A DNA stretch of 64,000 nt from Pseudomonadota bacterium (GTDB taxonomy: Bacteria > Pseudomonadota > Gammaproteobacteria > Steroidobacterales > Steroidobacteraceae). Below, one piece after another: positions 5,346-64,000 of the stretch; position 1 is the stretch's first letter, and each line of letters begins with the position of its first letter. The stretch is from contig JANNNQ010000447.1 in the NCBI GenBank assembly GCA_031398625.1, positions 11,520-75,519 on the forward strand, in the 5' to 3' direction. Below the pieces are notes generated by a model that saw nothing but the letters and a program-made list of their open reading frames with translations, was not told the origin of the DNA and did not search any database. A program made the translations under genes and the position numbers.

Positions 5346-5806
5346 GCATCGACCTGAGCACGATCCCGTGGGCGCCGACGCTGGCGAAGGTCGGCGCTCA
5401 CATCCAGTCGAGGACCCGGCACGTGGAAACCAACATCGCGCTAGGGACGTTCACGGCGAACACGTACCCCACCGATGTGCAGGTGAGCGAGGTCATCCGG
5501 TCGGCAGTAAGCATGGTGCAGGGGAAAGTCGGGACACCGATCGTCGCGGCGGCCTACGACCTGTGCGAGACAGCGGCGGCGCTTTGGTCGGCGTATTGGA
5601 CCGAGTTGACTTTCCCAGAGCGGGATTCTGATGTCACCGTGTACCTGCAGCTCCGGGCCGATGCGCTGTTGTTGATGGAGCAAGCCGAAGCGGTGAACAT
5701 CGGGGCGGGCGGCGGAACTCAGGACCCGCCTGACGAGGACGGGTTGGCGAACAACGAGCTGTCCAGCTACTACTTCCCTGCCGCCCCTGGGGAGTACGTC
5801 CTCTGA
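5342..5806 (+). CDS. head-tail adaptor/connector-like protein
   Basis: 154 aa, GTGA-coupled to the upstream gene. Size and position fit a gp6-type adaptor. No diagnostic motif was seen. Confidence 0.45.
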   Translation: MSIDLSTIPWAPTLAKVGAHIQSRTRHVETNIALGTFTANTYPTDVQVSEVIRSAVSMVQGKVGTPIVAAAYDLCETAAALWSAYWTELTFPERDSDVTVYLQLRADALLLMEQAEAVNIGAGGGTQDPPDEDGLANNELSSYYFPAAPGEYVL

Positions 5807-5952: not shown

Positions 5953-6048
5953 GGTGCTCTGCCGTGGGAAGCCACGGCACCCGTTGCTCAGCGGCATAGC
6001 GCACCGGTGGACGGCCTGCCGCTTCGAGGCTTGCGCGCCTCGGGGTCG

Positions 6049-6061
6049 CGGGCCGTTCGCT
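6049..6061 (+). repeat. 13-nt direct repeat CGGGCCGTTCGCT, copy 2
   Basis: Identical to 5814-5826. Confidence 0.7.
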
Positions 6062-6209
6062 TGTTCGCTCCAACGCAACGGCCGATTCGTTGGATGGGGG
6101 TCCCGCAGATCCACCGGGAGTTGTATCCCCTTTGCAGGTCCTTCTTAAGTGCTGACCCCTGACGAATCCCCCAGATCTATGTGGTGACGTGTGTCACGGC
6201 GCGCACCGA

Positions 6210-6244
6210 CTACGATTCGTGGCAGACAGCGCTACGAATCATGG
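6210..6244. promoter_or_regulatory. dual palindromic operator pair (CTACG-N3-CGTAG type), cassette 1
   Basis: CTACGATTCGTGG at 6210 and CTACGAATCATGG at 6232, starts 22 bp apart. The second copy contains ATG 6241. Confidence 0.6.
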
Positions 6245-6570
6245 AGGCTCTCATGCCCGTCAGGCCCGAACCCACCCAGCCCAACGTCCCCTCGTTCGCG
6301 GAAGACCTCACCCCCGTGGCCGCACCGAAGGGTGCACCGACCCCGGCGGACTACGCGAAGGAGTGGGGCAGCTACCGGGCGCTCCATGACCTCATGGTCA
6401 ACGGCTCTCTCGCCGTCACCACCGGCAACCCCGTCCCTGCCAGCCACCCGATGCTCCGCGACTCTCACGAGGTCGACGAGAACGGCCGCGGCGGTTGGGG
6501 CGACGGCTGGGTGACCTCGAAGGCCGTGGAGCTCACCGGGGACTACCCGGCCCCAGACGACCTGCGCTGA
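6241..6570 (+). CDS. hypothetical virion-module protein
   Basis: The ORF is open from GTG 6181. ATG 6241 is preferred because it sits inside the operator exactly as ATG 25066 does. 109 aa. Confidence 0.5.
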   Translation: MEALMPVRPEPTQPNVPSFAEDLTPVAAPKGAPTPADYAKEWGSYRALHDLMVNGSLAVTTGNPVPASHPMLRDSHEVDENGRGGWGDGWVTSKAVELTGDYPAPDDLR

Positions 6571-6662
6571 TGTTCCGCGCTCTCGGCTCGGTCGTTCTTG
6601 GCGCGCTCTCCTTCGGGGTCGGCACGCTCATCGGCTATCGCATGGCTCGGCCGATCCGATGA
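6570..6662 (+). CDS. 30-aa single-TM peptide
   Basis: MFRALGSVVLGALSFGVGTLIGYRMARPIR. The start overlaps the upstream stop (TGATG) and the stop overlaps the next start (ATGA). Confidence 0.4.
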   Translation: MFRALGSVVLGALSFGVGTLIGYRMARPIR

Positions 6663-22175: not shown

Positions 22176-23702
22176 CTACTCGCCGATGGCCTTGCCGAGG
22201 AAGAGGGCCGACATCTCCTCGGCAGCTTTCCGCAGCTCTGCGTTCGGGGACCTGGCGTACAGGTTCATCGTCGTCTGAATGTCGGCGTGCCGCAGGAGGG
22301 TCATCGCGATCCGGGGGTGGATCTCGAGGGCAACCATCATCGTCGCCGCCCAATGCCTCGCGGCGTGGGGGCGGATGTGCTCGGCCCCTGCCTCTTCGAG
22401 GATGCTCACCCATTCGTCCCAGTCGTCGCGGGGGTCGATCGGCCGGCCGTTGCGCTGAGAGAACAAAAGCAGCACCTGCTCCCCGTTGATCTCCCAGCCC
22501 TTCCACCGGGGCCCTTCCTCGATCCGCTCCCGCTTCTGCGCTGTCAACCGCGCCTTGAGAAGGTCAGCGATCTGCTTCGGCATCGGCAAAGGCGCGTCGG
22601 AGGCTTTCGTCTTCACGGGCAGCAGGACCAGCCCTCCACCGTCAGAGTTCGGACACCTCGCGGCCTGAGCCTTCCCGCACGGCCACGCGGGACGCTCCAC
22701 CCCACCACCGACGACCACCTTGGGGCACTGCTTCGCCTGACGTTTCCCGCAGGGGAACAGCTTCGGCGGGCGCACCAACTCCGGTGGTTCCTTGTAGCGG
22801 TCCGCGTCCGAGCGGAGAGTCGCGGTTCCCGTTGGCTCCCCGCACCCGTGCGCGTACGTCAGTCGCGACCTCTCCGTTCCTACAGGGTCACCGCACCCAT
22901 GCCCGTCGGGGCGGTCCCGCTGGAGTTGCCAGCGAACGTTCAAGACTCCCGCGTCGAAGTCCAGCGCCGGGACGGTGAACCCCAGCGTCTCCCCCTGGCG
23001 CAGGCCGTACACGATCCGTAGCACCCACTTCGCGCCCAGCCGGCGCTTCTTGGCGACTTCGAGGACGCGGAGCATTTCGTCGAGTTCGACGTCGCGGTCT
23101 TCCTTGGGCTGCGCACCGGCGGGGAGCATGGTGAGGTCGGCGATGTTGCGGGGCATCCGGTTGCGTCGCCAGGCGATGTCGAACGCTACTTTCATCATCG
23201 CGTCGACTTGGTGGATAGAACTGGCGGCCATCCCCGCGTCGGCCATGGCTTGGTAACAGGCTTCGAGGTCTTCGGCTTTGACGGCGTCCATTCGTTTCTT
23301 GCCGATGCGGGGGTAGACGTGGTTTTTCGCGTACCCCTTGTAGGTGGCGAGAGTGGACCTGCGGTTGCCCTTGCGACCCTTGATGGGTTTCTTCGGGGCG
23401 AGGACGGTGAGGTAGTGCTCCATCCATTCCTGCACCGTGAGGGCTTTCGTGGTGGTGAGGGTTCCCGCGTCGCGGGCGTTGATCAGGTCCCGGAGGTTCT
23501 TGTTCGCTTCGGCTTTCGTGGGTGCGGACTTGGAGTATTTCTTCTCCTGTTTGCCACCGACGATGTCGAGGGTGATGTAGCCGCGCCAGGAGACGGTCTC
23601 GACGACGGTCCCGTCTACCCGGGTTTTCTTCCGGACGGTCCGGTAGACGCTGCCTTCACCGTTGGATTTGGTTCTCTTGCGGGGCTTCTGGTCCCCGCCC
23701 AT
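22176..23702 (-). CDS. int: tyrosine integrase
   Basis: Has R (YGLRQGETLG), HAARHWAAT (HxxR) and LLRHADIQTTMNLYARS (H...Y). ATG 23702 abuts the ImmA stop. Adjacent to attP. Confidence 0.9.
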   Translation of the reverse strand: MGGDQKPRKRTKSNGEGSVYRTVRKKTRVDGTVVETVSWRGYITLDIVGGKQEKKYSKSAPTKAEANKNLRDLINARDAGTLTTTKALTVQEWMEHYLTVLAPKKPIKGRKGNRRSTLATYKGYAKNHVYPRIGKKRMDAVKAEDLEACYQAMADAGMAASSIHQVDAMMKVAFDIAWRRNRMPRNIADLTMLPAGAQPKEDRDVELDEMLRVLEVAKKRRLGAKWVLRIVYGLRQGETLGFTVPALDFDAGVLNVRWQLQRDRPDGHGCGDPVGTERSRLTYAHGCGEPTGTATLRSDADRYKEPPELVRPPKLFPCGKRQAKQCPKVVVGGGVERPAWPCGKAQAARCPNSDGGGLVLLPVKTKASDAPLPMPKQIADLLKARLTAQKRERIEEGPRWKGWEINGEQVLLLFSQRNGRPIDPRDDWDEWVSILEEAGAEHIRPHAARHWAATMMVALEIHPRIAMTLLRHADIQTTMNLYARSPNAELRKAAEEMSALFLGKAIGE

Positions 23703-24259
23703 CACAGGGCCGGGGAACCGACGAGGAATAGCCCGGAGTGGCGGACAATCGGGATCGCACCGATCCGAGCATCGAGGGTATTCGGGTCCACTTGGAGCAT
23801 CTCGGCTGCCTCCCGGCGGTCCCTCCCGAAACCCAGTGCCCACGCGAGCATGGTGTCGGTGATGAGCTTCACTGCCGCCCAACGGTCGGCTTCCACTTCC
23901 ATCGCTTCGTCCACGGCCGGATCTCCCGTTGGGGCGTGGCCGAGTTCAATGTGACGCAGCTCGTGCATGAGCGTGCACCGCTGTTCCACTGGTGTCCCAA
24001 TGTTGATTCGGATGCGGCGGGTCAGGAGGTCGCAGTCGCCTGCAATGTTGCCTAGGTCGCAGATTTCGTAAGTGGCGTCGAGGCGGTATAGCTCGGCTTG
24101 GACGATTGGATCCTGCACGTGCAGCCCCCTCTCAGCCAGGCCGCCCGGGGAATATCCCGGCCCTTTGCTACGACCTGTGCTCGAATGTTGACCGTACGTG
24201 CATCTTCTTGATCGATCTAGAACCGACCGGTAGATATGACCGAACAGATGATCAATCAC
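23702..24259 (-). CDS. immA: ImmA/IrrE-family metalloprotease
   Basis: HEXXH motif MHELRHIELGH. ATGA-coupled to the repressor gene upstream and abuts int downstream. Confidence 0.7.
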   Translation of the reverse strand: MIDHLFGHIYRSVLDRSRRCTYGQHSSTGRSKGPGYSPGGLAERGLHVQDPIVQAELYRLDATYEICDLGNIAGDCDLLTRRIRINIGTPVEQRCTLMHELRHIELGHAPTGDPAVDEAMEVEADRWAAVKLITDTMLAWALGFGRDRREAAEMLQVDPNTLDARIGAIPIVRHSGLFLVGSPAL

Positions 24260-30414: not shown

Positions 30415-32000
30415 CCAAGACACGCACCGCGCAGCACCGCCCCGCCACCAAGCAGCGCAGATTCCAGCACGACGACCTGATCGCCGTCGACCTCTTCAGC
30501 GGCTTTGGTGGCCTAACCCAAGGCATCGAGCGTGCCGGGTTCACAACGATTCTCGCCGCGAACCACAGCCAGTACAAGACCGAGGTCCACGAGACGAACC
30601 ACCCGGAAGCCGAGCACTGGATCGCCGACCTGGTCGACCCGGAATCAGGCGACTATCACGACGTCCGCGACCTCCCTGCCGGCGACCTGCTCAGTGCGGG
30701 CGTGAGCTGCGTCAACCACTCCCCGGCAAACTCGCTGAAGGCCTACGAGGAGCGAGGGACTCTCTTCGACAGGCAGGACGACGAGTACGAGGCCAGGGTC
30801 ACCCGATCCGAACGCGACCGCGCGACGGCGAACTGCGTCCTCCACTACGCCGCGACGCACCATCCGCGGCTGATCCTTGTCGAGTGCACGACGCAGCTGC
30901 TGTCGTGGGGGCCGTTGATCCCCGGCAGCAAAAAGGTCGGCGACGGAACCACGTACCGGTGGTGGCTGAAGCAATTCGACATCATCGGTTACGACCACAA
31001 GGTGCTCTATCTGAACTCGCAGTTCTTCGGCGTCGGCCAGTCCCGGAACCGGGGGTACTGGTGCTTCTGGAAGAAGGGCATCCCAGCACCTGATCTGGAG
31101 CACCGACCGGAAACCTGGTGCGACCGCTGCCAGACGATCGTGCAGGCCCGGCAGTCCTGGAAGACGGGCATCCCGCCAACCGGGACCGTCGACTACGGCA
31201 GGCAGTATCACTACACGTGCCTGTCCTGCCGCCGCGAGGTCATCCCGACGTTCACCCCGTCGTTGTCCGCGCTTGACCTGACGAACCTCGGCACCAAGAT
31301 CGGCGATAGGCCGAACAAGATCCAGCAGGACGGTTCGTTCGGGCCTCTCGCTCTCTCGACCATGGCCAGGGCCGAGAGGTGCCGGCAGAGGTTCGGCGAC
31401 TTCCCGGCCATCCTGATGCCGGCCAAGGCCGAGCGTGGCTCGGAACGTCACTTGTGGCAGCCGATGTCCACCCAGACGAGCCAGCAAGAGACCGCGCTGC
31501 TGGCGGCATCGGGGGCGCTCTCGCTGGCGGTCGACAACTACCAGGGCGCGCCGCGCGGGGTCGATGTCCCGTTCCCCACTCAGGTGGGTTCCGAGACGCT
31601 CGGGATCGTCTCCACGGGGGTCATGCCGTTCCGGAAGCACACCATCCCGACTATGCACGCCGAGCCGATGCCGACGGTCACGGCAGATCAGATCCCGGCC
31701 CTGGTCACGGCAACCGGCTCCGTCAGCGGCGCCGGCCTCCCGGCGGAGATCGCCGCGGAGTGGCGGAAGATGCTCTCCAATACCCCACTGCTGGAGTGCT
31801 ACCTGCGGATGCTCGGTTCGCACGAGATCGGCCGCGGTTGCGGGTTCGATCCCGACTTCGGCGACCACAAGGGGACGTTCAAGGTCTGGGGCAGTGAACG
31901 CGATCGGGTCGACGGCTACGGCAACGCTGTCTCACCGCCGGTCGGTGAGTGGATCAGCGACCGGTTGCGGCGTGCCATTCATGGCGAGGCTGCAGCATGA
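30411..32000 (+). CDS. DNA (cytosine-5) methyltransferase
   Basis: Motif I DLFSGFGGLTQG. Catalytic region SAGVSCVNHSPAN (SC instead of PC). QSRNRGYW. Motif X GNAVSPPVGEWI. ATG 30411 is preferred over the ORF-track start. Confidence 0.75.
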   Translation: MTKTRTAQHRPATKQRRFQHDDLIAVDLFSGFGGLTQGIERAGFTTILAANHSQYKTEVHETNHPEAEHWIADLVDPESGDYHDVRDLPAGDLLSAGVSCVNHSPANSLKAYEERGTLFDRQDDEYEARVTRSERDRATANCVLHYAATHHPRLILVECTTQLLSWGPLIPGSKKVGDGTTYRWWLKQFDIIGYDHKVLYLNSQFFGVGQSRNRGYWCFWKKGIPAPDLEHRPETWCDRCQTIVQARQSWKTGIPPTGTVDYGRQYHYTCLSCRREVIPTFTPSLSALDLTNLGTKIGDRPNKIQQDGSFGPLALSTMARAERCRQRFGDFPAILMPAKAERGSERHLWQPMSTQTSQQETALLAASGALSLAVDNYQGAPRGVDVPFPTQVGSETLGIVSTGVMPFRKHTIPTMHAEPMPTVTADQIPALVTATGSVSGAGLPAEIAAEWRKMLSNTPLLECYLRMLGSHEIGRGCGFDPDFGDHKGTFKVWGSERDRVDGYGNAVSPPVGEWISDRLRRAIHGEAAA

Positions 32001-32239
32001 CCGCCGTCCGCCCGTACTCCACGCGTCCCCATAACGAGGACGCCGTCGTCGATCTCCTCGCCGGGGGCCGACCGGTTCTGACTCCGGCGGACCGGCATGA
32101 GGCGATCCGCCGGCTGTTTGCCAGGGGGTGTCGCGAGGAGTCGATCGCAGCCCGGGTGGGGTGTTCGGTGGCGACGGTGCAGCGTGCGGTGAAGGCGGTT
32201 CCGGCTGCGCGGGTGCGGGAACTGCGGGACCTGCCGTGA
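31997..32239 (+). CDS. small HTH protein
   Basis: ESIAARVGCSVATVQRAVK. ATGA-coupled. Confidence 0.5.
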   Translation: MTAVRPYSTRPHNEDAVVDLLAGGRPVLTPADRHEAIRRLFARGCREESIAARVGCSVATVQRAVKAVPAARVRELRDLP

Positions 32240-32424
32240 TCACCCAGACGGATCTGACTCCTGATGAGGCGAGGTGGGCCCGGTATCGGGTGGAGCTCCC
32301 GGAGATTGTCGCGTCCCGTTTTCCTAGGCCAGTGCCGCCCGAAACGAAGTTCATCCTCGGCTGCCAGATGCGCGGTGATGACCGTGCCGTACATGGCGAA
32401 CCCGAGCACGCAGTCGGTGGTTGA
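32236..32424 (+). CDS. 62-aa hypothetical protein
   Basis: GTGA-coupled with moderate GC3. Confidence 0.35.
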   Translation: MITQTDLTPDEARWARYRVELPEIVASRFPRPVPPETKFILGCQMRGDDRAVHGEPEHAVGG

Positions 32425-32428
32425 CGCT

Positions 32429-33124
32429 ATGTCCGCCGGGCGACTGGGCTGCATCCTCACCCCGAAGCAGGGGAACCGTGTTCCCGAAGACCCCTCGATC
32501 ATGGTCTGTTTGGACAACGGGTGTGGTCCGGGGAAGGACGGGAAGCCGGGCAAGGGATGGCCTAGTGAGGGCAAGTTTCTGGTTTGGCTTCAGAAGATGG
32601 AGCAGTACGGACGGCACGGGGAGGATCGGGTCCTGTTCGCTGTCGCCCCCGACGTTGTTGGTGATGCGGTGGCGACCTTGGAGCGTGCGGTCGAGTGGTT
32701 GCCGATCATCCGTGACCTCGGCTTCCCGACTGCTCTAGCCGCACAGGACGGACTCGAGCACCTCGATATCCCATGGGATGACTTCGACGTGCTGTTCGTC
32801 GGTGGCAGCACTGAATGGAAGCTAGGCCCTGCCGCCCGACGAATCGTGTTGCAGGCCAAGCAGCATGGCAAGCACGTGCACATGGGCCGGGTCAACTCAG
32901 CCAAGCGCCTGGAGTACGCCACCGCTATCGGATGCGACACCGCAGACGGAACCAAAATCACGTTCGGACCTGACATCAACCTGCCCCTCGTCCTCAGCTG
33001 GAACCGGGGCTCTTCACTCTCGCCCAGGAGGCGTCATGAATCTCACCACCGTCCCGGACTCCGGCGAATGCGTCATGGTCACCGCTTCGAGCGACATCGA
33101 ACACCGGTGCCCGCACGTCGATGA
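32429..33124 (+). CDS. dpdA: DpdA-like (TGT-superfamily) DNA transglycosylase, tentative
   Basis: LGCILTPKQGN...FAVAPDVVGDA...LFVGGSTEWKLG...HMGRVNSAKRL...GCDTADGT follows the pattern of actinophage queuine-tRNA-ribosyltransferase-like proteins. Upstream in-frame starts exist at 32378 and 32393. The last 30 or so codons have low GC3. Confidence 0.55.
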   Translation: MSAGRLGCILTPKQGNRVPEDPSIMVCLDNGCGPGKDGKPGKGWPSEGKFLVWLQKMEQYGRHGEDRVLFAVAPDVVGDAVATLERAVEWLPIIRDLGFPTALAAQDGLEHLDIPWDDFDVLFVGGSTEWKLGPAARRIVLQAKQHGKHVHMGRVNSAKRLEYATAIGCDTADGTKITFGPDINLPLVLSWNRGSSLSPRRRHESHHRPGLRRMRHGHRFERHRTPVPARR

Positions 33125-33356
33125 GGTGGACAAGGGAACGGTCACCATCTCGTGGATGGTGACGGAATGCACGATCGAACTGCACTCCCTGGCCGAGTAC
33201 ATCCGTGGCTGGAAGGACGTCCGCGTCTCCCATGAGGAACTGACGGCCACGATCCAGCGGGACGTCCTCCGCGCCGGGGTTGAAGAGGTTCAGGTGCGGG
33301 CGATGTGGCAAACCGCTGGCATGTCCATCGCGACTGACACGAGGTGCCCGTCATGA
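33036..33356 (+). CDS. QueF-like T-fold protein (QueF-L type)
   Basis: HRCPHVDEVDKGTVTISW...CTIELHSLAEYIRGW...SHEELTATIQRDV aligns with B. subtilis QueF SLCPKTGQPDFGTIVIRY...CIELKSLKLYLFSF...FHE. The catalytic Cys is present, but the Lys residues of the NADPH motif are replaced. GGAGG lies upstream. Confidence 0.6.
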   Translation: MNLTTVPDSGECVMVTASSDIEHRCPHVDEVDKGTVTISWMVTECTIELHSLAEYIRGWKDVRVSHEELTATIQRDVLRAGVEEVQVRAMWQTAGMSIATDTRCPS

Positions 33357-33571
33357 CCGTCACCACACCAACGTCCTTTCAGGACGCGGGTTTACAGGAG
33401 CTGGGGGATGTGGCCCGCATGATGCTCGCCAACCGGGAGGCAGAGCGGGAGGCGTTTCGGGCGGCGATGAAGAAGGCGAAGGAGCGACTGGTCGACCCGC
33501 ACGAGGTGGCGGACATCTTCACCGCAGAAGGCGTCGACCTGTGTTCGCTGATGGCGGTTCTCGGACCGTGA
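33353..33571 (+). CDS. hypothetical protein
   Basis: ATGA-coupled, 72 aa. Confidence 0.5.
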   Translation: MTVTTPTSFQDAGLQELGDVARMMLANREAEREAFRAAMKKAKERLVDPHEVADIFTAEGVDLCSLMAVLGP

Positions 33572-33780
33572 ACCAGAGCGTATGCCCTTGGGGCCACCCG
33601 TATGCGGGGAAGAACCTCGGCGCCAACCGACGCAATGGAGCACCGTTCTGCAAGCACTGCCGGAAGGTCTCCTCGCGCGGTACGAGGCGTGGCGGGATGA
33701 CGCTGGCGGAGTGCTACCTGATCTACCCCGAGTGGCTGGGCATGGCCGCCGGACCACTACTACGAGGGAGGACATCGTGA
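33568..33780 (+). CDS. zinc-binding small protein
   Basis: CPWGHPYAGKNL...GAPFCKHCRK. GTGA-coupled. Confidence 0.5.
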   Translation: MNQSVCPWGHPYAGKNLGANRRNGAPFCKHCRKVSSRGTRRGGMTLAECYLIYPEWLGMAAGPLLRGRTS

Positions 33781-34196
33781 GCGAAGTGAAGCTGACACCC
33801 GCTGAGGATCTGCTGATCGAGGTGCTGATCGCACGTCATCGCTTGGGAGAGCCGTTCTGGACGTTCGACTACTGCCAGCGGCCAGTTCTCAAGCGCCTGG
33901 AGGCGAAGGGACTCGTAACCACCAAGGCCGCCCCGCCGCCTCATATTCAAGCCCGCTTGACCCTCACGGCGGTTCGGGCGTTCATGTCGAACCCGTACAC
34001 GCCACAGGGCGCAAAGGTCGAGTGGGCGGTCCAGGCAGCCGACGACGCCAAGCCGATCCACTACGCGATCCGGTCGCACAGCCCGGCCGTGTCGGAGGAG
34101 TACCACCGCAAATACGCGGCCCGCCATGACGGGGACCTGTACCGGCGGTGCGTGGTGGAGATGCCGTGGCAGCTTGTTCCGGAGGAGAAGTCGTGA
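33777..34196 (+). CDS. hypothetical protein
   Basis: GTGA-coupled, 139 aa. Confidence 0.55.
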   Translation: MSEVKLTPAEDLLIEVLIARHRLGEPFWTFDYCQRPVLKRLEAKGLVTTKAAPPPHIQARLTLTAVRAFMSNPYTPQGAKVEWAVQAADDAKPIHYAIRSHSPAVSEEYHRKYAARHDGDLYRRCVVEMPWQLVPEEKS

Positions 34197-34861
34197 GCAT
34201 TCCTGAGGTCATCATCGAACCGTGGACGTACCGGGTGTCACCGTTCCCAGCGGACTCCGAACCCGGCCGGTTCTGGTCGACGTGGATCAAGGCGACTGGC
34301 GATGGCCGTTGGTACGCGATGGACGGCTACAACTCGATGCCCGAGTCGTTCTTGACGGTTCACGGGGAGTGGACGATGGACCGGGAGGCGTCGATCTGTT
34401 TCGTGGACTTCGAGGAGGCGAAACGGATTGCGACGGAGGCAATCCACGACATCACGGTCAACTGGGATCACGTTCGAGCAGGCAGCCGCGCGGTTCAGCC
34501 GGAAGGAGCGGCTATGAGCCCGCAGCGAGTGAAGGTCGAGGGCGACCTGTTCCACGGCCGAGTTCCGGAGGGCGCGGTGTACGTGGGTCGCGCTGCTCCG
34601 GGGCTGAAGGCAAGCGAGTACGCGAACCCGTACCGGATTGGCCACCGGACGACGGACCCGGCAACCGGATACGAAACCATCCCGCTCAACCGCTCGGATG
34701 TCGTTGCCCTCTATGCGGCCTTGCTGGTTGCGAGAGAGAGGACAGCGCCCCAGTGGGTGGCGGAACTGAGGGCTGCGCTCCAAGGCTGGAACCTGGCCTG
34801 CTGGTGCAAACCGGCCGAGCCGTGCCATGCGGATGTCCTGCTGGACTTCGCCTCATCCTGA
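34193..34861 (+). CDS. protein with C-terminal DUF4326 domain
   Basis: C-terminal half GRVPEGAVYVGR...YANPYRIG...LQGWNLACWCKPAEPCHADVL. Confidence 0.55.
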   Translation: MSIPEVIIEPWTYRVSPFPADSEPGRFWSTWIKATGDGRWYAMDGYNSMPESFLTVHGEWTMDREASICFVDFEEAKRIATEAIHDITVNWDHVRAGSRAVQPEGAAMSPQRVKVEGDLFHGRVPEGAVYVGRAAPGLKASEYANPYRIGHRTTDPATGYETIPLNRSDVVALYAALLVARERTAPQWVAELRAALQGWNLACWCKPAEPCHADVLLDFASS

Positions 34862-36665: not shown

Positions 36666-37406
36666 ATGGCAGACACGGAAATCGGCTGGACCGAGAAGGT
36701 CTGGAACCCAACCACTGGCTGCGATCGCGTATCGCCAGGGTGCGACAACTGCTATGCCCTGACTATGGCCAAGCGCCTGAAGGGGATGGGGTCAGCCAAG
36801 TATCAGACCAATGGCGACCCTCGGACCTCTGGCCCTGGCTTCGGTCTCGCTCTACACCCGGACGCCCTCGACCTCCCGAAGTCGTGGCGCAAGGGTCGCA
36901 AGATATTCGTGAACTCGATGAGCGACCTGTTTCACGCCCGCGTCCCGCTTTCGTTCCAGCAGGACGTGTTTCAGGTGATGGCGGAGACGCCACAGCACAC
37001 CTACCAGGTGCTGACCAAGCGGTCGCTCCTCCTCCGGCGCCGGGCCGAACATCTGGTTTGGCCGTCGAACGTGTGGATGGGCGTCTCGGTCGAAACTGAG
37101 GAGTATCTCGGGCGCATCGACCACCTCCGCGATGTCCCGGCTGCCGTCCGGTTCGTCTCCGCCGAGCCGCTACTTGGTGGCTTACCCGGCCTGAACCTCG
37201 ACGGCATCCATTGGGTCATCACCGGTGGCGAGTCCGGTCCTGGTGCCCGACCCGTTGAGCAGAACTGGGTTCGGGGAATCCGGGACGCCTGCATCTCCTC
37301 CGAGGTGGCGTTCTTCCACAAACAATGGGGAGGCGTCAGGCCGAAAGCCAACGGGCGGACGCTCGACGGGCGGACATGGGATGAGTACCCGGGCGATCGC
37401 CGATGA
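36666..37406 (+). CDS. DUF5131 (phage Gp37/Gp68) family protein
   Basis: N-terminus TEIGWTEKVWNPTTGCDRVSPGCDNCYALTMAKRL is the family signature. Confidence 0.7.
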   Translation: MADTEIGWTEKVWNPTTGCDRVSPGCDNCYALTMAKRLKGMGSAKYQTNGDPRTSGPGFGLALHPDALDLPKSWRKGRKIFVNSMSDLFHARVPLSFQQDVFQVMAETPQHTYQVLTKRSLLLRRRAEHLVWPSNVWMGVSVETEEYLGRIDHLRDVPAAVRFVSAEPLLGGLPGLNLDGIHWVITGGESGPGARPVEQNWVRGIRDACISSEVAFFHKQWGGVRPKANGRTLDGRTWDEYPGDRR

Positions 37407-39855: not shown

Positions 39856-40518
39856 ATGACCACGCGCGACCAGTTCGAAGCACGTCTCCTCGCCAGCCTC
39901 GATGACATCGTCGCCGGTTACGAGGACGCCTACCGCAGCGATAACCCCAATGGACTCTGGGAGTCGTGGGCGGAGTCGGAGAAGTACCGGCTGCGATCCT
40001 GCATCCAGCGCTGGGTGGGCTACGTCCCGCCCGTGTTCCGTTCGGCAGACCTCGCCAAGCTCGGGCCCGAGCAGCACGGGGATGCCCTCCGCGGCTACCT
40101 GACGGGGACCACCCGAAACCTGATGCTTGCCGGGCCGATCGGCACCGGGAAGTCGTTCGCCGCTTGGGCTGTCGCCAATGAGGCTGCGGCCCGAGGCTGG
40201 CGCCCCCGGGCGTGGTCGACGCCTCGCCTGCTTCTGGACATGCGCCCCGAGGGCGACCCGCAGGCGTTCACCAACGCCTGCCTCGCGGACCTGCTGATCC
40301 TCGACGACCTCGGGGCCGCCCGACCGACAGATTGGGCGACGGAGCAGATCTACTCGATCGCGGAGGAGCGCTGCAACCAGCAACTGCGCACAATTGTCAC
40401 CACCAACTCGACGTTCGATCAGCTCACCGCCATCTGGGGTGCGCCGACGATGGACCGTCTTCGGCACGCCGGCACGAGTCTCGTCTTCAAGGGCGATTCC
40501 CGCCGGGGCCCGGTATGA
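39856..40518 (+). CDS. DnaC/IstB-like helicase loader ATPase
   Basis: Walker A LMLAGPIGTGKSF, Walker B LLILDDLG. Confidence 0.7.
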   Translation: MTTRDQFEARLLASLDDIVAGYEDAYRSDNPNGLWESWAESEKYRLRSCIQRWVGYVPPVFRSADLAKLGPEQHGDALRGYLTGTTRNLMLAGPIGTGKSFAAWAVANEAAARGWRPRAWSTPRLLLDMRPEGDPQAFTNACLADLLILDDLGAARPTDWATEQIYSIAEERCNQQLRTIVTTNSTFDQLTAIWGAPTMDRLRHAGTSLVFKGDSRRGPV

Positions 40519-43154
40519 GCGCCGCACTGGAGGCCGTCCCGGACGATGGTGGACGTCACGCGCCGCCGAACGACGTCGAGGCCGAGCGGTGCGTACTGGG
40601 GTCGCTGATGCTGTCCGCATCCGTGCTCGACGACGTCGCCCCGCTGATCTCGGGCAGGGACTTCTACCGCCCAGCCCACGAGACCATTTGGGAGGCGATC
40701 ACCGGGCTTGCCAGCGAAGGGAACCCCTTCGACGCCGTAGCTGTGGCCGACCGACTCGACGCCAACGGTGACCTGTTGCGTATCGGTGGACCGGTGTACG
40801 TCCACACTCTCCTCAGCAGTGTCCCAACGGCTGCCAGTGGCGGCTACTACGCCCGGATCGTCGCCGACAAGGCCGTCCGCCGCCGGGTCATCGACGCGGG
40901 AACCCGGATTGCCAGACTCGGCTACACCAGCACGGGCGACGAGGCCCTGAACCTCATGGAGGCCGAGGTGCTGGCCGCGAACGATCGCACCTCCACCGAG
41001 GACTACCGGGCGATCGGAATGCTGCTTGACGAGACCTTCGACGAGATCGAAGCCGCCGGGAAGCGCGAGCAGGGCGTGACCGGGGTGCCCACCGGGTTCA
41101 TCGACCTCGACAAGCTCACCAGCGGCCTCCACGCGGGTCAGTTGATCCTCGTGGCGGGTAGGCCAGCGATGGGCAAGAGCTGCCTCGGAATGGACCTTTG
41201 CAGGTCGGCGTCCATCCACCATGGCCTGACGTCGGTGATGTTCAGTCTCGAGATGGGCCGATCCGACATCACGACGCGGCTCCTGTCGGCCGAGGCGAAG
41301 GTGCAGCTTCAGAACATCCGCAAGGGCAACGTCGACGAAATCGAGTGGGCGGCTCTGGCTCGCGCCCGGACCAGACTCGACGACGCCCCGTTCTTCATCG
41401 ACGACAGCCCGAACCTGACCCTCGCGGACATTCGCAGCAAGGTTCGCCGGCTGAAGCAGAAGAACGACCTGAGGCTGGTTGTCATCGACTACCTCCAGCT
41501 AATGACCAGCGGGAAGAAGGTCGAGTCGCGCCAGCAGGAGGTGAGCGAATTCTCCCGGGCGCTGAAGCTTTTGGCGAAGGAAGTGGAGGTGCCGATCGTT
41601 GCGCTGTCTCAGCTGAACCGAGGGCCGGAGCAGCGGCAAGATAAGACACCGCAAGCATCGGACCTGAGGGAATCGGGATGCCTGACGCGGGAGACGACCT
41701 TGCTCAGAGCGGATACGGGCGCCCCAGTTAGCTTCGGGGAGCTCATGGACAAGGGGTGGGAAGGCGTCTCCGTCTGGTCACTGGACGACGACCGGAAGAT
41801 TGTCGCTGCACCCATAACCAACGTCTTCCCCTCTGGGGTCAAGCAGACGTTCAAAATGCTGATGGCCTCTGGCCGAACAGTGACCGCCACCGACACCCAC
41901 AAATTCAGGACGCTCCACGGTTGGACGGCGCTGGGTGATCTCGTCCCCGGATCGCGGCTTGCCATTCCCCGCGCAATCCCGGCGCCGATGACCGGTGGAC
42001 TGGGGTGGTCAACCTACAGGCTCGGACTGTTGGCCCATCTCCTGGGAGATGGCTGCGTACTGACGAAGCAGCCAGTCCACTACACCAGCGAGGACGAGGA
42101 GAACATTCGGTTCGTCACCGAGGCAGCGGCCGAGTTCGGCATTACTCCCCGTCGCGTGGCCCAAGGGAACTGGTGGCATGTCTATCTCCCCGCTCCAGCC
42201 GCCGGTCGCAATCCGATCAGCAACTGGTTCCGAGAGATGGGCATTGGCAACCTCCGCAGCCACGAGAAGCACCTGCCAGCAGAGCTGTTCGGAATGACGA
42301 ACGCTGAAGTGTGCACCTTTCTTCGCCACCTGTGGGCGACTGACGGCAGAGTGGCCGAGCCCTCGAGCATGGCCAGTGGCATCGCAATCATTTCCTACGC
42401 CACAACCAGTCGACGCCTCGCGGACGACGTGGCGCTCCTCCTGGCCCGCCTCGGAATCGTGGCGAGGATCAAGGTGGTCCCGGAGGAGCGCGGGAGGGTT
42501 GGCTACCGAGTCACTATCGCTGACGCCGGTTCGATGCGGATCTTCTGCGAATCCATTGGAGTGCATGGCGCCAGAGGGGTCAGGGCCGACCGTCTTCTCT
42601 CCGAGCTGGTGGGCAAGAGGCTCAACCCGAACAAGGGCGCCATCCCACGTGAGATGTGGGACGAGATCAGGTCGCTCCGGGCCGAGGCCGGCATGACGGA
42701 GCGCGCGTTCCAGAGTCGGCTCGAAACCAGTTACTGCGGGACCACGCTCTACAAGACGGGGCTGTCGCGTGAGCGGATGGGGAGAGCGGCAGAAATCCTC
42801 AACTCGGATGACCTCCGGGGCTTCGCCAGCGATGACGTGTTCTGGGACGAGGTTGTTTCGATCATCCCTGCGGCTGTCGTCCCGGTCTTCGACGCGACAG
42901 TCAAGGGCACGCACAGCTTCATCGCGGACGGGATCGTCGCGCACAACAGCCTCGAGCAGGACGCCGATCTGATCATCTTGCTGCACCGTCCAGACGTGTA
43001 CGAGAAGGAGTCTCCTCGGGCGGGTGAGGCGGACCTCATCGTTGCCAAGCACCGCAACGGGCCGACGGAAACGCTCAAGATGGTCTTCCAAGGCCACTAC
43101 TCGCGTTTCGCCGACATGGCCGACGACTGGACCCCTCCGGAGCGTGCCTCGTGA
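40515..43154 (+). CDS. dnaB: replicative DNA helicase DnaB, interrupted by an intein
   Basis: PPNDVEAERCVLGSLML, GRPAMGKS, VVIDYLQL and ALSQLNRGPEQRQDK. The exteins join as DLRESG / SLEQDADLIILLHR. Confidence 0.9.
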   Translation: MSAALEAVPDDGGRHAPPNDVEAERCVLGSLMLSASVLDDVAPLISGRDFYRPAHETIWEAITGLASEGNPFDAVAVADRLDANGDLLRIGGPVYVHTLLSSVPTAASGGYYARIVADKAVRRRVIDAGTRIARLGYTSTGDEALNLMEAEVLAANDRTSTEDYRAIGMLLDETFDEIEAAGKREQGVTGVPTGFIDLDKLTSGLHAGQLILVAGRPAMGKSCLGMDLCRSASIHHGLTSVMFSLEMGRSDITTRLLSAEAKVQLQNIRKGNVDEIEWAALARARTRLDDAPFFIDDSPNLTLADIRSKVRRLKQKNDLRLVVIDYLQLMTSGKKVESRQQEVSEFSRALKLLAKEVEVPIVALSQLNRGPEQRQDKTPQASDLRESGCLTRETTLLRADTGAPVSFGELMDKGWEGVSVWSLDDDRKIVAAPITNVFPSGVKQTFKMLMASGRTVTATDTHKFRTLHGWTALGDLVPGSRLAIPRAIPAPMTGGLGWSTYRLGLLAHLLGDGCVLTKQPVHYTSEDEENIRFVTEAAAEFGITPRRVAQGNWWHVYLPAPAAGRNPISNWFREMGIGNLRSHEKHLPAELFGMTNAEVCTFLRHLWATDGRVAEPSSMASGIAIISYATTSRRLADDVALLLARLGIVARIKVVPEERGRVGYRVTIADAGSMRIFCESIGVHGARGVRADRLLSELVGKRLNPNKGAIPREMWDEIRSLRAEAGMTERAFQSRLETSYCGTTLYKTGLSRERMGRAAEILNSDDLRGFASDDVFWDEVVSIIPAAVVPVFDATVKGTHSFIADGIVAHNSLEQDADLIILLHRPDVYEKESPRAGEADLIVAKHRNGPTETLKMVFQGHYSRFADMADDWTPPERAS
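41679..42947 (+). mobile_element. DnaB intein (423 aa) with LAGLIDADG homing endonuclease
   Basis: Starts CLTRET, ends VAHN followed by Ser+1. LAGLIDADG blocks LLAHLLGDGCV and FLRHLWATDGRV. Inserted at the conserved RESG/S(I/L)EQDAD site. Confidence 0.85.
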
Positions 43155-54778: not shown

Positions 54779-55356
54779 GAGCTGATCCCCTTCGGCTCCG
54801 ACAGTTCCTTCGCGACGTCCACCCGTGGGCAGTCCAGGGCGCCCCGTTCGGCGTTCCCGAACTTCAGCAGAGCGGCCTTTCCTTCGGTGGACTCTCCGTC
54901 CCAGGTCTCTCCGGTGAACTCGTTCTGCCACCACCAGTCGGAACCGATGTACCGGGCAGCGGCAGCGCAGGCCATGATCAGGTAGGCGTGCAAGTCCTCG
55001 CAGCCCGCACCATTGTCCGAGGTGCGCTGGTAGCCGTAGGTGGTGTCCCACGTGATGTGGAACGAGGCTCGGGGCCACGTATCCGGCTCATCGTCGTCCT
55101 CTTCTGGCGGGTACGGGTTCTTGAGGTATCCGTCGAGTCCGTAGGTCATCTCGAGGATCGCGGGGAAGCCCTGGCCGATGCTGTTGTGAAAGCTCGGCGC
55201 CCACAGGGTCAGGTCTTCTGGTCGCCAGTGTTCGTCGCCGGGTGTGGCAACGTGCTTCCATTGGCCGTTCTCTGACCCGATGAGTTTCTGCAGGTACCGG
55301 AACATGCGCTGCGGGTCGTAGCTCCGCTCAATCCAGACGCTGGTGTTGAGAGTCAT
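54775..55356 (-). CDS. hypothetical Trp-rich protein
   Basis: 193 aa. Confidence 0.55.
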   Translation of the reverse strand: MTLNTSVWIERSYDPQRMFRYLQKLIGSENGQWKHVATPGDEHWRPEDLTLWAPSFHNSIGQGFPAILEMTYGLDGYLKNPYPPEEDDDEPDTWPRASFHITWDTTYGYQRTSDNGAGCEDLHAYLIMACAAAARYIGSDWWWQNEFTGETWDGESTEGKAALLKFGNAERGALDCPRVDVAKELSEPKGISS

Positions 55357-55369
55357 CGTGTTCCCCTTC

Positions 55370-55678
55370 TCAGGCGTTCAGCTTGGCGGAGATCGCGGGC
55401 GTGTGCGTGGTCGTTGCGGCGATTCCCTGGCTGAGCGCCACGGATACGAGCGTCCCGAGGGAGGCGATGAGTTCCATCGTCTCGGTCAGCGACATGGAGG
55501 AGAGGGCGTGGTCGGCGTTGGTGTCGAGGAAGATCCTCGGTTCGCCTCCGGGGTCGGTGATCCAGGCGGCACCACGGGGTGTGTCGATGAGGTCAGAGGA
55601 GTGGTGCCAGCCGGGGGTGTCGTGGGTTGCGGTGCACCAGGTGGGGCAGGTCTTCGTACGGGTGGCAAGATTGGCCAC
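55370..55678 (-). CDS. hypothetical protein (DUF6907-like, tentative)
   Basis: TKTCPTWCTATHDTPGWHHS motif. GTG start. Confidence 0.5.
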   Translation of the reverse strand: MANLATRTKTCPTWCTATHDTPGWHHSSDLIDTPRGAAWITDPGGEPRIFLDTNADHALSSMSLTETMELIASLGTLVSVALSQGIAATTTHTPAISAKLNA

Positions 55679-55713
55679 GGTTCGATCCTTTGTGAGATGA
55701 GGTTCGGATCAAG

Positions 55714-59911: not shown

Positions 59912-61674
59912 CCGACATCATCGCGGAACCCACCGCGGAAACCGAAACACCGGAACCCGACCCGGGGCATGGTCTCACCGAGATCACCCCACCCCAGAGC
60001 GACAACGACTCACCGGCCGAGGAGTTCGCTCAGGCCCTCATGTCCGCCCCAGCAGCACTGCTGCTGGCCGGGAACAGTGCGGTGGCCGCCCTCTCTAGTG
60101 CGTTCCAGGTCGCGGGCGTCGCCGGTGTTGTCGGAACCACAGCTGCGGTCGGCGGGACTGCCGCAGTCGGCGCGGTAGTCCGGCGCGCCCACCGGGCCGA
60201 GACCGAACGGAAGGACAAGGCTGCAGGGAAGACCGTTGCCCCGAAACCGGTCAGCGCCCGCCAGGCGCGCAAGCAGGAACGGCAGGCCAAGCGCGCCGCT
60301 CGGGCCGCCAGCAACTCCCGTCGTGCTGCCACCCGCTCTGGCGCCGCGCCTGCTAGGTCGGGTGGCATCCCCTCCGGTGGGCGGCACGCGAAGACCGGCT
60401 CTCATCGTCCTGCCCGAACCCCCGTCCGCTCCGCGTTGGGCGTTGGCAAGGGATCCCCGGCAGGGCGGGGCTCAATTGGCAAGGGCGCAGGAAAGCCGGG
60501 CGCTGGGGTCGGTAGGCCATCAGGCAAGGCCCCGGTGTCCGCTAGCCGGACCTCGGGCATTCCTTCGGCAGGTCGCTCCGCGTCTTCCGGTTCAGCGGGC
60601 AAGCCAAGCAGGATCGCCTCCGCCGCGCGCCGTGGGATGGCTTCCGGGAAACGAACTGCGGGTGGCCCTGCCACTGGTGGTAGCCGGGTGGCCGGTGCTG
60701 CCCGGCGCGCGACCGGCGCTGCTGGACGCCGTGCATCTGGTGCCACCACGAACGCCGCACGCTCCGCCCGCAAGGCCGCAGCGGCAAGTCAGGCCCGACT
60801 CGGCCAGGCCGCCCACTCGGCCACCGGATCCCGCGCCGGCAGAGTCGCATCAGCTGCGGGCCGCCGGGTTGCTACGGGTGGCCGTGCCCTTGGTCGGGGA
60901 CTGCGGTCGGCCAGGAACACCGGCCGGGCAGCAGCGGCCGCAGCACGACAGGCCAGCGGTCCGCGAGGAGTCGCCAGGGCCGTCAGGCAAGCCGTCGCCC
61001 AGTCCCAAGCCGCCCGGAACGCCGCCACCGGCAGGCAGCAGACCGGCCTGCGGCGAGCCCGCCAGCGGGCCATCGCCGCATCCACCGGTGCTGGTGCCGC
61101 CGTCCTGACCGCCGGAGCGACCGGTGCGCGCAGGACCGGCCGGTGGGGATGGTGGCTCATCCGATCCGGCATAGCCCGAGCCACAGGCCAACCCATCCCG
61201 CTCCCACCCGGGCGCACCCCACCACCACAACCACAGACCGGTCACCCACCGGTCGCCGACACCGTCAGCCAGCCCGCCGGGCCAGCCGCACAACACCCAC
61301 CCACCATCAGCACAGGAGCACACACCATGTCACTCGGAAACGTCCTCGAAGAACTGTCCGGCCAGATGATCGCTGCCGCCGCCGGCTACGACCCCGACGG
61401 CATGGCCCAATGGGGACGCGACATGCGATCACTGGAGCAGGTGCTACTGAACATCGGCGGCGTTCTCCAGGCGATCCAGCGCGGCGCTGACGACTTGCCC
61501 GTCAACCAGGTCGTGAAGGAAACCATCGGCGCCGTCGGTGAACTCCAGCAGGCGTGCTCATCTGCGGCTGCGGACATCCACGCCACGTTCCAGGCCGTCC
61601 ACCGGGCCGAGTTGGAGCGGCTCGAGAACCCGCGCGCCAACGAGCACAAGTGGGACGCGGCGGCGAACCGGTGA
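59908..61674 (+). CDS. 588-aa Ala/Arg/Gly/Ser-rich basic low-complexity protein with globular C-terminus
   Basis: ATGA-coupled upstream and GTGA-coupled to the traB-like gene. About 400 aa of A/R/G/S low complexity, then a structured 115-aa C-terminus. Confidence 0.55.
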   Translation: MTDIIAEPTAETETPEPDPGHGLTEITPPQSDNDSPAEEFAQALMSAPAALLLAGNSAVAALSSAFQVAGVAGVVGTTAAVGGTAAVGAVVRRAHRAETERKDKAAGKTVAPKPVSARQARKQERQAKRAARAASNSRRAATRSGAAPARSGGIPSGGRHAKTGSHRPARTPVRSALGVGKGSPAGRGSIGKGAGKPGAGVGRPSGKAPVSASRTSGIPSAGRSASSGSAGKPSRIASAARRGMASGKRTAGGPATGGSRVAGAARRATGAAGRRASGATTNAARSARKAAAASQARLGQAAHSATGSRAGRVASAAGRRVATGGRALGRGLRSARNTGRAAAAAARQASGPRGVARAVRQAVAQSQAARNAATGRQQTGLRRARQRAIAASTGAGAAVLTAGATGARRTGRWGWWLIRSGIARATGQPIPLPPGRTPPPQPQTGHPPVADTVSQPAGPAAQHPPTISTGAHTMSLGNVLEELSGQMIAAAAGYDPDGMAQWGRDMRSLEQVLLNIGGVLQAIQRGADDLPVNQVVKETIGAVGELQQACSSAAADIHATFQAVHRAELERLENPRANEHKWDAAANR

Positions 61675-63758: not shown

Positions 63759-63878
63759 GACAACACCCACCCGAACCCCGTTCTTTGTGCTCGTCTCACG
63801 TCTCAGCCCCCGTAAACAGCGGTGAGACGTGAGACGAGACGCCCCATGAGACGCCCGTGAGACACCGATGAGACGGAG
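63745..63878. repeat. array of (A/G)TGAGAC(G/A) repeats incl. a 16-bp perfect inverted repeat (clt/TRS-like)
   Basis: GAGAC occurs 7 times forward (63757, 63824, 63831, 63836, 63848, 63859, 63870) and 3 times reverse (63749, 63793, 63800). CTCGTCTCACGTCTCA (63790-63805) pairs with TGAGACGTGAGACGAG (63823-63838). The last three copies are 11 bp apart. Confidence 0.7.
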
Positions 63879-64000
63879 ATCGCTCGTGCACGCCGACCAG
63901 CCCGCCGACCACACCTGGCGCCGCTTCACCTGGGTCGTGGCCATCCTCGCCGGACTGGCCCTCGCCGTAGGTCTCGCCCTCTCCTACGCCTCCGTGTACC
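63868..64000 (+). CDS. membrane protein, N-terminal part (3' end outside window)
   Basis: MRRRSLVHADQPADHTWRRFTWVVAILAGLALAVGLALSYASVY..., open to the window end. Confidence 0.4.
   Translation, partial: MRRRSLVHADQPADHTWRRFTWVVAILAGLALAVGLALSYASVY

Follow-up and report, generated by a model that had tools for sequence, protein, structure and literature searches.

The DNA analysed here, 64 kb of contig JANNNQ010000447.1 in assembly GCA_031398625.1 (positions 11,520 to 75,519; hereafter the window), carries two neighbouring genes on its forward strand, the first (gene A) encoding a minimal DpdA-like transglycosylase and the second (gene B) a QueF-like T-fold protein. From their sequences and those of their relatives, the two are predicted to belong to a system that is 7-deazaguanine DNA modification in kind and that differs from those already described by its minimal DpdA subfamily, its transporter partner, and a QueF clade distinct from both QueF and QueF-L. 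We regard the pair, with moderate confidence, as a version without the transporter of a 7-deazaguanine salvage module that is widespread in actinophages and prophages. An initial annotation made from the letters of this DNA can be sustained in part: both open reading frames (ORFs) lie on the forward strand as it had stated, but the start that it gave for gene A and the gene cluster that it proposed do not hold.

Gene A had been taken to begin at position 32429, but the codon there is an internal methionine. Homologues start about 17 codons earlier and open with a conserved Y-x-A-N-P-S strand in which the proline (Pro9) is nearly invariant, and an identical database protein (P0009) is 248 amino acids (aa) long, matching a start at 32378; because of both observations, ATG 32378 is most likely the true start. 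The conserved core then comprises residues 1–211 (nucleotides (nt) 32378–33010). When aligned at the DNA level with its closest relative, locus L001 (an assembly contig of 2974 bp), the window was found to lack 7 nt between 33003 and 33004. This deletion frameshifts the final 12 codons of gene A, so that the conserved C-terminal ending of the relatives, ...SWNRGPGLFTLAQEAS before the stop (also given as ...GPGLFTLAQEAS), is replaced by an unrelated, out-of-frame basic tail of about 40 aa that reaches into gene B. The overlap of the two genes, recorded in the initial annotation, is indeed present and measures 88 nt, but because of the deletion, which had been missed, it is not native; in L001 the overlap is just ATGA. 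We also considered whether the window genes are fused or are joined by programmed frameshifting, and rejected both, since the tail is out of the gene B frame and the deletion relative to L001 explains it.

The placement of gene A in a lineage with DpdA and tRNA-guanine transglycosylase (TGT), suggested by the initial annotation, is upheld by profile comparison and gene neighbourhood even though no curated library matches the protein. When the gene A family (118 sequences) was aligned by hhalign with a classical phage DpdA (DpdA1) family built around gp87 of Arthrobacter phage Sonali, the match reached 96.8% (E 3.4e-10, 173 columns), and controls (reversed alignments and the QueF-like, Vut_1, QueC, and QueE families) gave 0.0–0.9%; because this match is specific and the controls are low, we assign gene A to the DpdA lineage. 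Sonali gp87 itself adjoins QueC/QueD/QueE/FolE, and its homologues in cluster B mycobacteriophages are annotated as queuine tRNA-ribosyltransferase. Five motifs pair in order between the two families (DNGC/IDSGAF, APDVVGD/ALDVIGD, GGST/IAIGG, HMGRVNS/LHGLGIT, and GCDSAD/SVDSSSW). Among 29 gene A family sequences, Asp46 and Asp92 never vary and Asp187 is kept in at least 90%, and these residues align with the aspartates of the DpdA1 motifs IDSGAF, LDVIGD, and VDSSSW; they would be the equivalents of TGT Asp102, Asp156, and Asp280. The sole invariant cysteine of the family is Cys186, and the protein ends about 20 residues past the last motif. The AlphaFold model of gene A (predicted local distance difference test (pLDDT) score 94.6) has an alternating beta/alpha pattern, and its top 30 matches among the viral models of BFVD include several phage proteins named queuine tRNA-ribosyltransferase (Sonali gp87, Bella96, and Tinciduntsolum). 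Gene A thus appears to belong to the DpdA lineage as a divergent and shortened form (about 205 aa in its family, against about 290 aa in classical DpdA), which retains the homologous transglycosylase core with its Asp motifs and lacks roughly the C-terminal third of DpdA1.

This family is large, with more than 2456 homologues in a large database. Gene A matches PHROG 15826 (E 6e-71), which is labelled "unknown function", although the minimal subfamily carries a SEA-PHAGES annotation: tblastn identified proteins of 50–55% identity named "DpdA-like tRNA-guanine transglycosylase" in the Arthrobacter phages Sonali and Aoka, in ReqiPine5, and in some twelve Mycobacterium phages, GreaseLightnin among them. 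Partial homologues in Roseobacter phage CRP-701 and Erythrobacter phage ZS04 are annotated as "ssDNA-binding protein" and "DarB-like antirestriction protein", labels that are probably misannotations or reflect fusions.

The company that the DpdA-like gene keeps points in the same direction. Retrieval with a DpdA-like profile yielded 80 viral contigs (neighbour counts were taken over 93 loci in all), and in 70 of the 80, genes for 7-deazaguanine transport or synthesis stand directly next to the DpdA-like gene. A YhhQ/Vut_1 transporter gene lies directly upstream in 58, of which 51 have Vut_1 and the DpdA-like gene and 7 have Vut_1, a QueF-like gene, and the DpdA-like gene; 2 contigs have the QueF-like and DpdA-like genes only, so that a QueF-like gene is found in 9 of 80. 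QueC/QueE/QueD genes are directly adjacent in about 10 contigs (two of these also with classical DpdA and FolE), and 10 contigs have the DpdA-like gene alone. YhhQ (COG1738, Vut_1) is an experimentally validated preQ0 transporter (PMC5372724) and forms part of the deazaguanine cluster of phage CAjan (PMC7544227), although a 2019 survey found YhhQ uncorrelated with any phage group. The phage versions here are short (about 175–185 aa), and public annotation overlooks their identity in Aoka gp38 and GreaseLightnin gp54, which match Vut_1/YhhQ in Pfam at E values of 4e-12 and 2e-11, respectively. The complete 36.7-kb genome of Aoka, a cultivable Arthrobacter phage, carries the whole triad (the DpdA-like and QueF-like genes with that for the transporter), and no gene for preQ0 synthesis was found in it. 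The Vut_1 transporter is thus, on gene order, the predicted standard operon partner of a large minimal DpdA-like family, a partnership of which we found no published description. Like classical DpdA, gene A and its relatives lie in the early or DNA-metabolism region of phages and are tied to 7-deazaguanine supply (and CAjan encodes YhhQ as well; PMC7544227), but their normal partner is a transporter, not FolE/QueD/QueE/QueC. The same distinction applies to the phages that encode a DpdA and no preQ0 pathway (Mycobacterium phage Orion and Salmonella phage 7-11), for which salvage or host supply has been proposed (PMC6884629): the Orion enzyme is of the classical type (about 283 aa), whereas the gene A family is tightly linked in operons to Vut_1 and sometimes to a QueF-like gene.

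Gene B was described in the initial annotation as a QueF T-fold protein with the catalytic cysteine, in which both lysines of the NADPH motif are replaced, and Pfam, structural comparison, and alignment all agree with this. It scores 33 bits against the Pfam QueF family (PF14489), above the gathering score of 27.3, and its predicted structure (pLDDT 91.9) matches by Foldseek both Bacillus subtilis QueF (YkvM, 4f8b; an NADPH-dependent preQ0 reductase) with a query-normalised template modelling score (TMq) of 0.87 and a root-mean-square deviation (rmsd) of 1.4–1.6, and QueF-L of Pyrobaculum calidifontis (5jyx/5k0p; an amidinotransferase that forms archaeosine on tRNA) with a TMq of 0.87, a target-normalised score (TMt) of 0.89, and an rmsd of 1.1. 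Cys25 and Asp32 of gene B correspond to Cys55 and Asp62 of QueF and to Cys21 and Asp28 of QueF-L, Glu48 corresponds to B. subtilis Glu78, and His66-Glu67 to His96-Glu97, a pair that QueF-L has as well. At the NADPH motif, gene B reads ELHSLAEY, in which His50 replaces Lys80 and Ala53 replaces Lys83.

The initial annotation had also likened gene B to QueF-L-type relatives, which is correct as to the loss of both lysines, absent from QueF-L too, but not as to orthology. Identity is 21–22% to B. subtilis QueF and 17% to QueF-L. A search of PDB sequences with gene B alone was weak (best E 0.9), and with a 71-sequence gene B profile, QueF-L (5jyx) came top at 36.5 bits, next to QueF of Vibrio cholerae at 36.3 bits. 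In addition, 5 of the 8 positions of the QueF motif are retained in gene B, Glu48 and the aromatic residue among them, whereas the corresponding QueF-L segment is AIEEFKKM. Because of these retained positions and the equal scores, gene B does not appear to be a QueF-L orthologue and is best placed, by sequence, at an equal distance from the B. subtilis enzyme and from archaeal QueF-L. It resembles QueF-L in size and fold, but its clade is bacterial and phage-borne, more acidic, and partnered with a transporter and a predicted DNA transglycosylase rather than with arcTGT.

An exhaustive profile search identified 208 QueF-like cluster representatives at E ≤ 1e-10, of which 157 were aligned for conservation counts. 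The catalytic Cys (155/155), Asp (156/157), Glu48 (156/157), His66 (152/157), and Glu67 (157/157) are almost uniformly kept, and the position of Lys80 is His in 151 of 157, while at that of Lys83 the representatives have Ala (78), Arg (51), or, in just 3 cases, Lys. Nearly all members (98.7%) have an acidic QueF-like domain, with a median net charge of −7, and the isoelectric point (pI) of the gene B protein is 4.8. The ratio of nonsynonymous to synonymous substitution rates (dN/dS) against L001 is 0.14 for gene A and 0.26 for gene B, and both genes are under purifying selection. These patterns indicate a coherent and selected clade rather than a degraded QueF. A 2023 survey of phage QueF proteins found none that aligned with QueF-L and an NADPH motif conserved in all that were examined (PMC10516641), and the present clade appears to have fallen outside its set.

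The chemistry options for such a protein, as its sequence suggests them, are amidine or amide formation, reduction, and base capture. In the case of reduction, gene B would still be a nitrile reductase that makes preQ1 with differently bound NADPH, with NADH, or with F420H2, and the DpdA-like enzyme would insert preQ1 to give dPreQ1 DNA, an outcome already demonstrated with other QueF/DpdA pairs of phages. The Pfam score, the 5 retained motif positions, and the somewhat higher identity to B. subtilis QueF are all compatible with this, as are the findings that the "QueF-L-like" proteins of phages Dp-1 and HVTV-1 proved to yield dPreQ1 (PMC6884629) and that phage QueFs complement Escherichia coli queF (PMC10516641). 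However, the validated phage QueFs retain the NADPH motif (PMC10516641), both of whose lysines are lost across the present family; gene B also falls far below the NCBIfam preQ1-synthase equivalog cutoff (TIGR03139, 32.7 against 86.9 bits), and at 106 aa it has the size of QueF-L (109 aa) and lacks the terminal extensions of the B. subtilis enzyme, which at 165 aa is about 60 residues longer. We thus consider continued reductase activity distinctly unlikely.

Proteins with the ELHSL motif occur in phages, prophages, and genomes of actinobacteria. Retrieval with a QueF-like profile gave twelve loci, comprising nine viral contigs, two from Nocardia, and one weak match from Planctomycetota, and the order in nearly all of them is Vut_1, QueF-like, DpdA-like. 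The DpdA-like gene adjoins the QueF-like gene in every such locus with enough flank, and no QueC/D/E or FolE gene was found within 10 kb in any of the twelve. Some members are fused: DpdA-like and QueF-like domains form one protein in P0296, P0351, and a 357-aa ORF of Nocardia, and a QueF-like domain is joined to a full-length Vut_1 in P0265 and to Vut_1 in P0337. The order in the window, DpdA-like and then QueF-like, matches that of the DpdA-like+QueF-like fusions. Within the DpdA-like domain of the Nocardia, P0296, and P0351 fusions, the GGST-WK loop holds an insert of about 27–30 residues with a CxxC...CxxC pattern that is absent from unfused proteins and that looks, from its sequence, like a zinc ribbon. 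A QueF clade without the NADPH lysines thus seems consistently attached to the DpdA-like family, sometimes as one polypeptide, and we found no published description of this either.

These arrangements also bear on the possibility that the QueF-like protein catalyses no turnover and instead captures and hands over the base: it would bind scarce, imported preQ0 at the transporter through a thioimide bond that can be reversed, and would pass it to the DpdA-like enzyme, which would insert it unmodified. Its fusion to either partner, the usual position of its gene between theirs, its acidity, and its lack of an obvious DNA-binding character would suit such a role, as would its being optional (51 of 80 loci have the transporter and DpdA-like genes alone) and the report that the thioimide formed by QueF-L with free preQ0 persists and does not react with ammonia donors (PMC5485725). 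On the other hand, adjacent overlapping genes can fuse trivially, and the near-invariance of Asp32, His50, His66, and Glu67 suggests catalysis besides binding. We know of no precedent for a carrier in the T-fold family. A pure hand-over protein is therefore, in our estimate, unlikely.

The initial annotation had reported no FolE, QueD, QueE, or QueC gene in the window, and our searches, which covered every six-frame ORF down to a length of 50 aa, agree. Used as single queries, QueC, QueD, QueE, FolE, and classical DpdA of Sonali gave no match below E 0.07, and profiles of the preQ0-synthesis families (3–10 phage sequences per family) gave none below E ~1. A YhhQ/Vut_1 transporter was likewise not found in the window by phmmer or with a profile of 58 phage Vut_1 sequences. 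The window thus appears to be a transporter-less variant, as does L001 on its 2974-bp contig. Our results strongly reinforce the suggestion that the host, or a source beyond the window, supplies the base, because the usual partner of the DpdA-like family is a transporter of the preQ0 type.

A window module with a frameshifted 3′ end of its DpdA-like gene and with no Vut_1 or QueCDE/FolE gene within 64 kb could also be a decaying remnant whose DNA is unmodified, all the more so if its host makes no preQ0, and Orion sets a precedent for a DpdA without modification (PMC6884629). We find this improbable. The dN/dS values of both genes are low, the 7-nt deletion leaves intact the conserved core and last predicted helix of gene A, and the Shine-Dalgarno sequence and ATG of gene B are kept. 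The L001 contig also shows no Vut_1 and has a helix-turn-helix gene directly upstream of the pair, and because this arrangement is shared, it looks like that of a lineage and not a one-off. Finally, about 29 kb of the 93,476-bp source contig, as well as the host genome, lie beyond the 64 kb that were searched.

The salvage module, our favoured explanation, would in its full form comprise a YhhQ/Vut_1-type transporter, an optional QueF-like gene, and a minimal DpdA-like gene. The DpdA-like enzyme would exchange guanine in phage DNA for a preQ0-type 7-deazaguanine that the phage does not make but scavenges, either from the pool of its host or from the surroundings of the cell; in the window, since no transporter is encoded, the base would arrive through host functions or through genes beyond the 64 kb. 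By analogy with QueF and QueF-L, Cys25 of the QueF-like protein is expected to attack the nitrile of preQ0 and form a thioimide, and because the protein has no NADPH site, this thioimide would be resolved without reduction, most likely by ammonia or water, yielding an amidine (G+/dG+) or an amide (ADG/dADG). His50, at the place of a QueF NADPH-binding lysine, might speculatively serve as the general base. The acidity of the protein and its fusion to the transporter favour an enzyme that works on the free base, ahead of insertion; alternatively, it may act on dPreQ0 within DNA, as the precedent of QueF-L acting on tRNA would favour (PMC5485725). The expected benefit is that phage DNA would be shielded from restriction.

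Several points weigh against this explanation. The product named above is a guess. Gene A has no Pfam or NCBIfam match, a 29-sequence profile of its family found nothing among PDB sequences, and the TGT zinc subdomain (CxCxxC...H) is absent from it. The missing Pfam match is a weak test, since the classical Sonali gp87 has none either. Structural comparison with the PDB fails to distinguish TGT from other TIM barrels, as Foldseek returned TGT at E ~3e-4 (TMq 0.52–0.54) mixed with PdxJ, pyruvate kinase, DERA, and EAL. The DpdA-like gene occurs alongside a classical DpdA in Sonali and in viral contig L061, so its role may differ from simple insertion into DNA; two transglycosylases within one deazaguanine cluster suggest non-redundant roles. 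The window copy, with its frameshifted gene A C-terminus and missing transporter, may be impaired. Many actinobacteria, e.g., Mycobacterium, have no preQ0 pathway (PMC6884629), and the host here may lack preQ0 as well. Lastly, Orion has a DpdA of the classical type as its only deazaguanine gene, yet no 7-deazaguanine was present in its DNA (PMC6884629), so the presence of the gene is no guarantee of modification; the result is also compatible with salvage, if laboratory media do not supply the precursor.

Some of these points would suit a DpdA-like protein that exchanges bases in tRNA or other RNA or in free nucleotides or nucleosides, or one that is an unrelated TIM-barrel enzyme. In favour of this, the protein is small (about 205 aa, without the zinc subdomain and the C-terminal region of TGT and DpdA1) and roughly neutral (pI 5.9), has no match in Pfam, NCBIfam, or PDB sequences and mixed TIM barrels as its structural matches in the PDB, and coexists with a classical DpdA in Sonali and L061. 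The specific profile–profile match to DpdA1, with the Asp motifs aligned, argues otherwise, as does the position of the gene in viral contigs, nearly always beside 7-deazaguanine transport or synthesis genes. Moreover, in five loci (L028, L035, L040, L048, and L080), the DpdA-like protein is the sole transglycosylase detected in the fetched flanks beside QueC/E/D, as in known DNA-modifying phages. We thus regard a target other than DNA, or an unrelated enzyme, as very improbable.

We entertain one bolder possibility, to which we give rather less than even weight: that, besides QueF and QueF-L, the QueF family has a third branch with a function of its own, made up of the ELHSL proteins of about 105 aa. 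These would act without NADPH on scavenged preQ0, either by converting its nitrile (into an amidine, an amide, or some other group) before or after insertion or as a covalent relay from YhhQ to the minimal DpdA, such that the DNA modification would be fed by environmental 7-deazaguanines and not by a biosynthetic pathway.

The rest of the window (G+C 65%) looks, from its gene content, like a temperate actinobacterial phage or prophage (Table 1). Its AAA_24 ATPase is about 50% identical to counterparts in Gordonia and Mycobacterium phages, and a RusA gene and a C5 methyltransferase are among its genes. The integrase lies mid-region between tail-like and early genes, as in temperate actinophage genomes in virion order and not as at the end of a prophage. 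The intein in the DnaB helicase carries a LAGLIDADG homing-endonuclease domain. The tRNA-Thr call may be a false positive: it sits within an ORF (55350–55700) of high G+C at third codon positions (GC3), and the Rfam tRNA model found nothing in the window at gathering score. From 60001 to 64000, G+C climbs from ~0.65 to 0.69–0.72 and short DNA matches of 66–72% to plasmids of Actinomadura, Streptomyces, and Kitasatospora appear, which may mark the edge of the phage-like region.

Table 1. Features of the window and of related loci, with coordinates in the respective record.
Feature	Record	Coordinates	Strand	Remarks
Minimal DpdA-like transglycosylase gene (gene A)	Window	32378-33124	+	248 aa as it stands
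QueF-like T-fold gene (gene B)	Window	33036-33356	+	106 aa
Shine-Dalgarno-like AGGAGG	Window	33026-33031	+	4 nt before gene B ATG; read from sequence
7-nt deletion and out-of-frame gene A tail	Window	33003-33124	+	DNA alignment with L001
Small helix-turn-helix gene	Window	31949-32239	+	Weak helix-turn-helix Pfam matches; directly upstream of gene A
Tyrosine integrase	Window	22176-23945	-	589 aa, unusually long
DUF5131 gene	Window	36666-37406	+	Pfam E 1.5e-96
DnaB-type replicative helicase with intein	Window	40182-43154	+	990 aa; Pfam DnaB, DnaB_C, Intein_splicing, LAGLIDADG_3
tRNA-Thr(GGT) call	Window	55486-55564	+	ARAGORN, 79 nt
AAA_22 protein	Window	61542-63758		738 aa
DpdA-like gene and classical system	Arthrobacter phage Sonali (L003)	5995-6612 and 8982-12408		205-aa DpdA-like + classical DpdA + QueC/QueD/QueE/FolE
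DpdA-like gene and classical system	Viral contig L061	618-4999		205-aa DpdA-like + classical DpdA + QueC/QueD/QueE/FolE
DpdA-like+QueF-like fusion	Nocardia sp. CA-290969 (L004/L005)	9236-10306		Two copies: chromosome + 39-kb contig
Vut_1 gene gp38	Arthrobacter phage Aoka (L002)	5137-5664		Pfam PF02592; annotated "membrane protein"
Vut_1 gene gp54	Mycobacterium phage GreaseLightnin (L094)	2487-3044		Pfam PF02592; annotated "hypothetical protein"

Nearer to the pair, the initial annotation had named a C5-methyltransferase and DUF4326, MmcB-like, and DUF5131 genes. Pfam confirms the first, second, and fourth of these, whereas for "MmcB-like" the sole support is a PHROG family described as "DNA repair protein". 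The DUF5131 protein also has a weak, sub-threshold NCBIfam match to "radical SAM mobile pair protein A" (60.6 bits against 355). The DNA-modification cluster that these genes were said to form with the pair was rejected, as each occurs in just 2–5 of the 93 related loci. We likewise rejected a foreign origin of the pair by low GC3, since its values (0.77 and 0.82) equal those of its neighbours. The small helix-turn-helix gene has a counterpart (HTH_23/HTH_28) at the equivalent position in L001 and, among the 93 loci, in L001 only; it is context and possibly a candidate regulator rather than an established part of the module. Megablast of positions 31500–34500 against phage records gave no match, and no preQ1 riboswitch or any other Rfam family was found in the window or in eight related loci.

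Modification of phage DNA with 7-deazaguanines is an active field, both for its anti-restriction role and for new DNA chemistries. A standing puzzle in it is that many phages, notably of Actinobacteria without a queuosine/preQ0 pathway, encode a DpdA-type gene only, and that the one tested, Orion, was unmodified (PMC6884629). The hypothesis can be tested with phages in culture collections, namely Aoka (the triad), GreaseLightnin and relatives (transporter and DpdA-like genes), and Sonali (a DpdA-like gene with the classical system). If the salvage explanation is true, DNA modification in these phages would be fed by salvage and would be seen solely in media that contain preQ0 or preQ1. If the QueF-like clade is truly a third branch, this would explain why phages of hosts without queuosine genes, e.g., Mycobacterium, carry DpdA-type genes at all, and the locus would point to T-fold proteins that tailor nitriles by what may be a new reaction for their superfamily.

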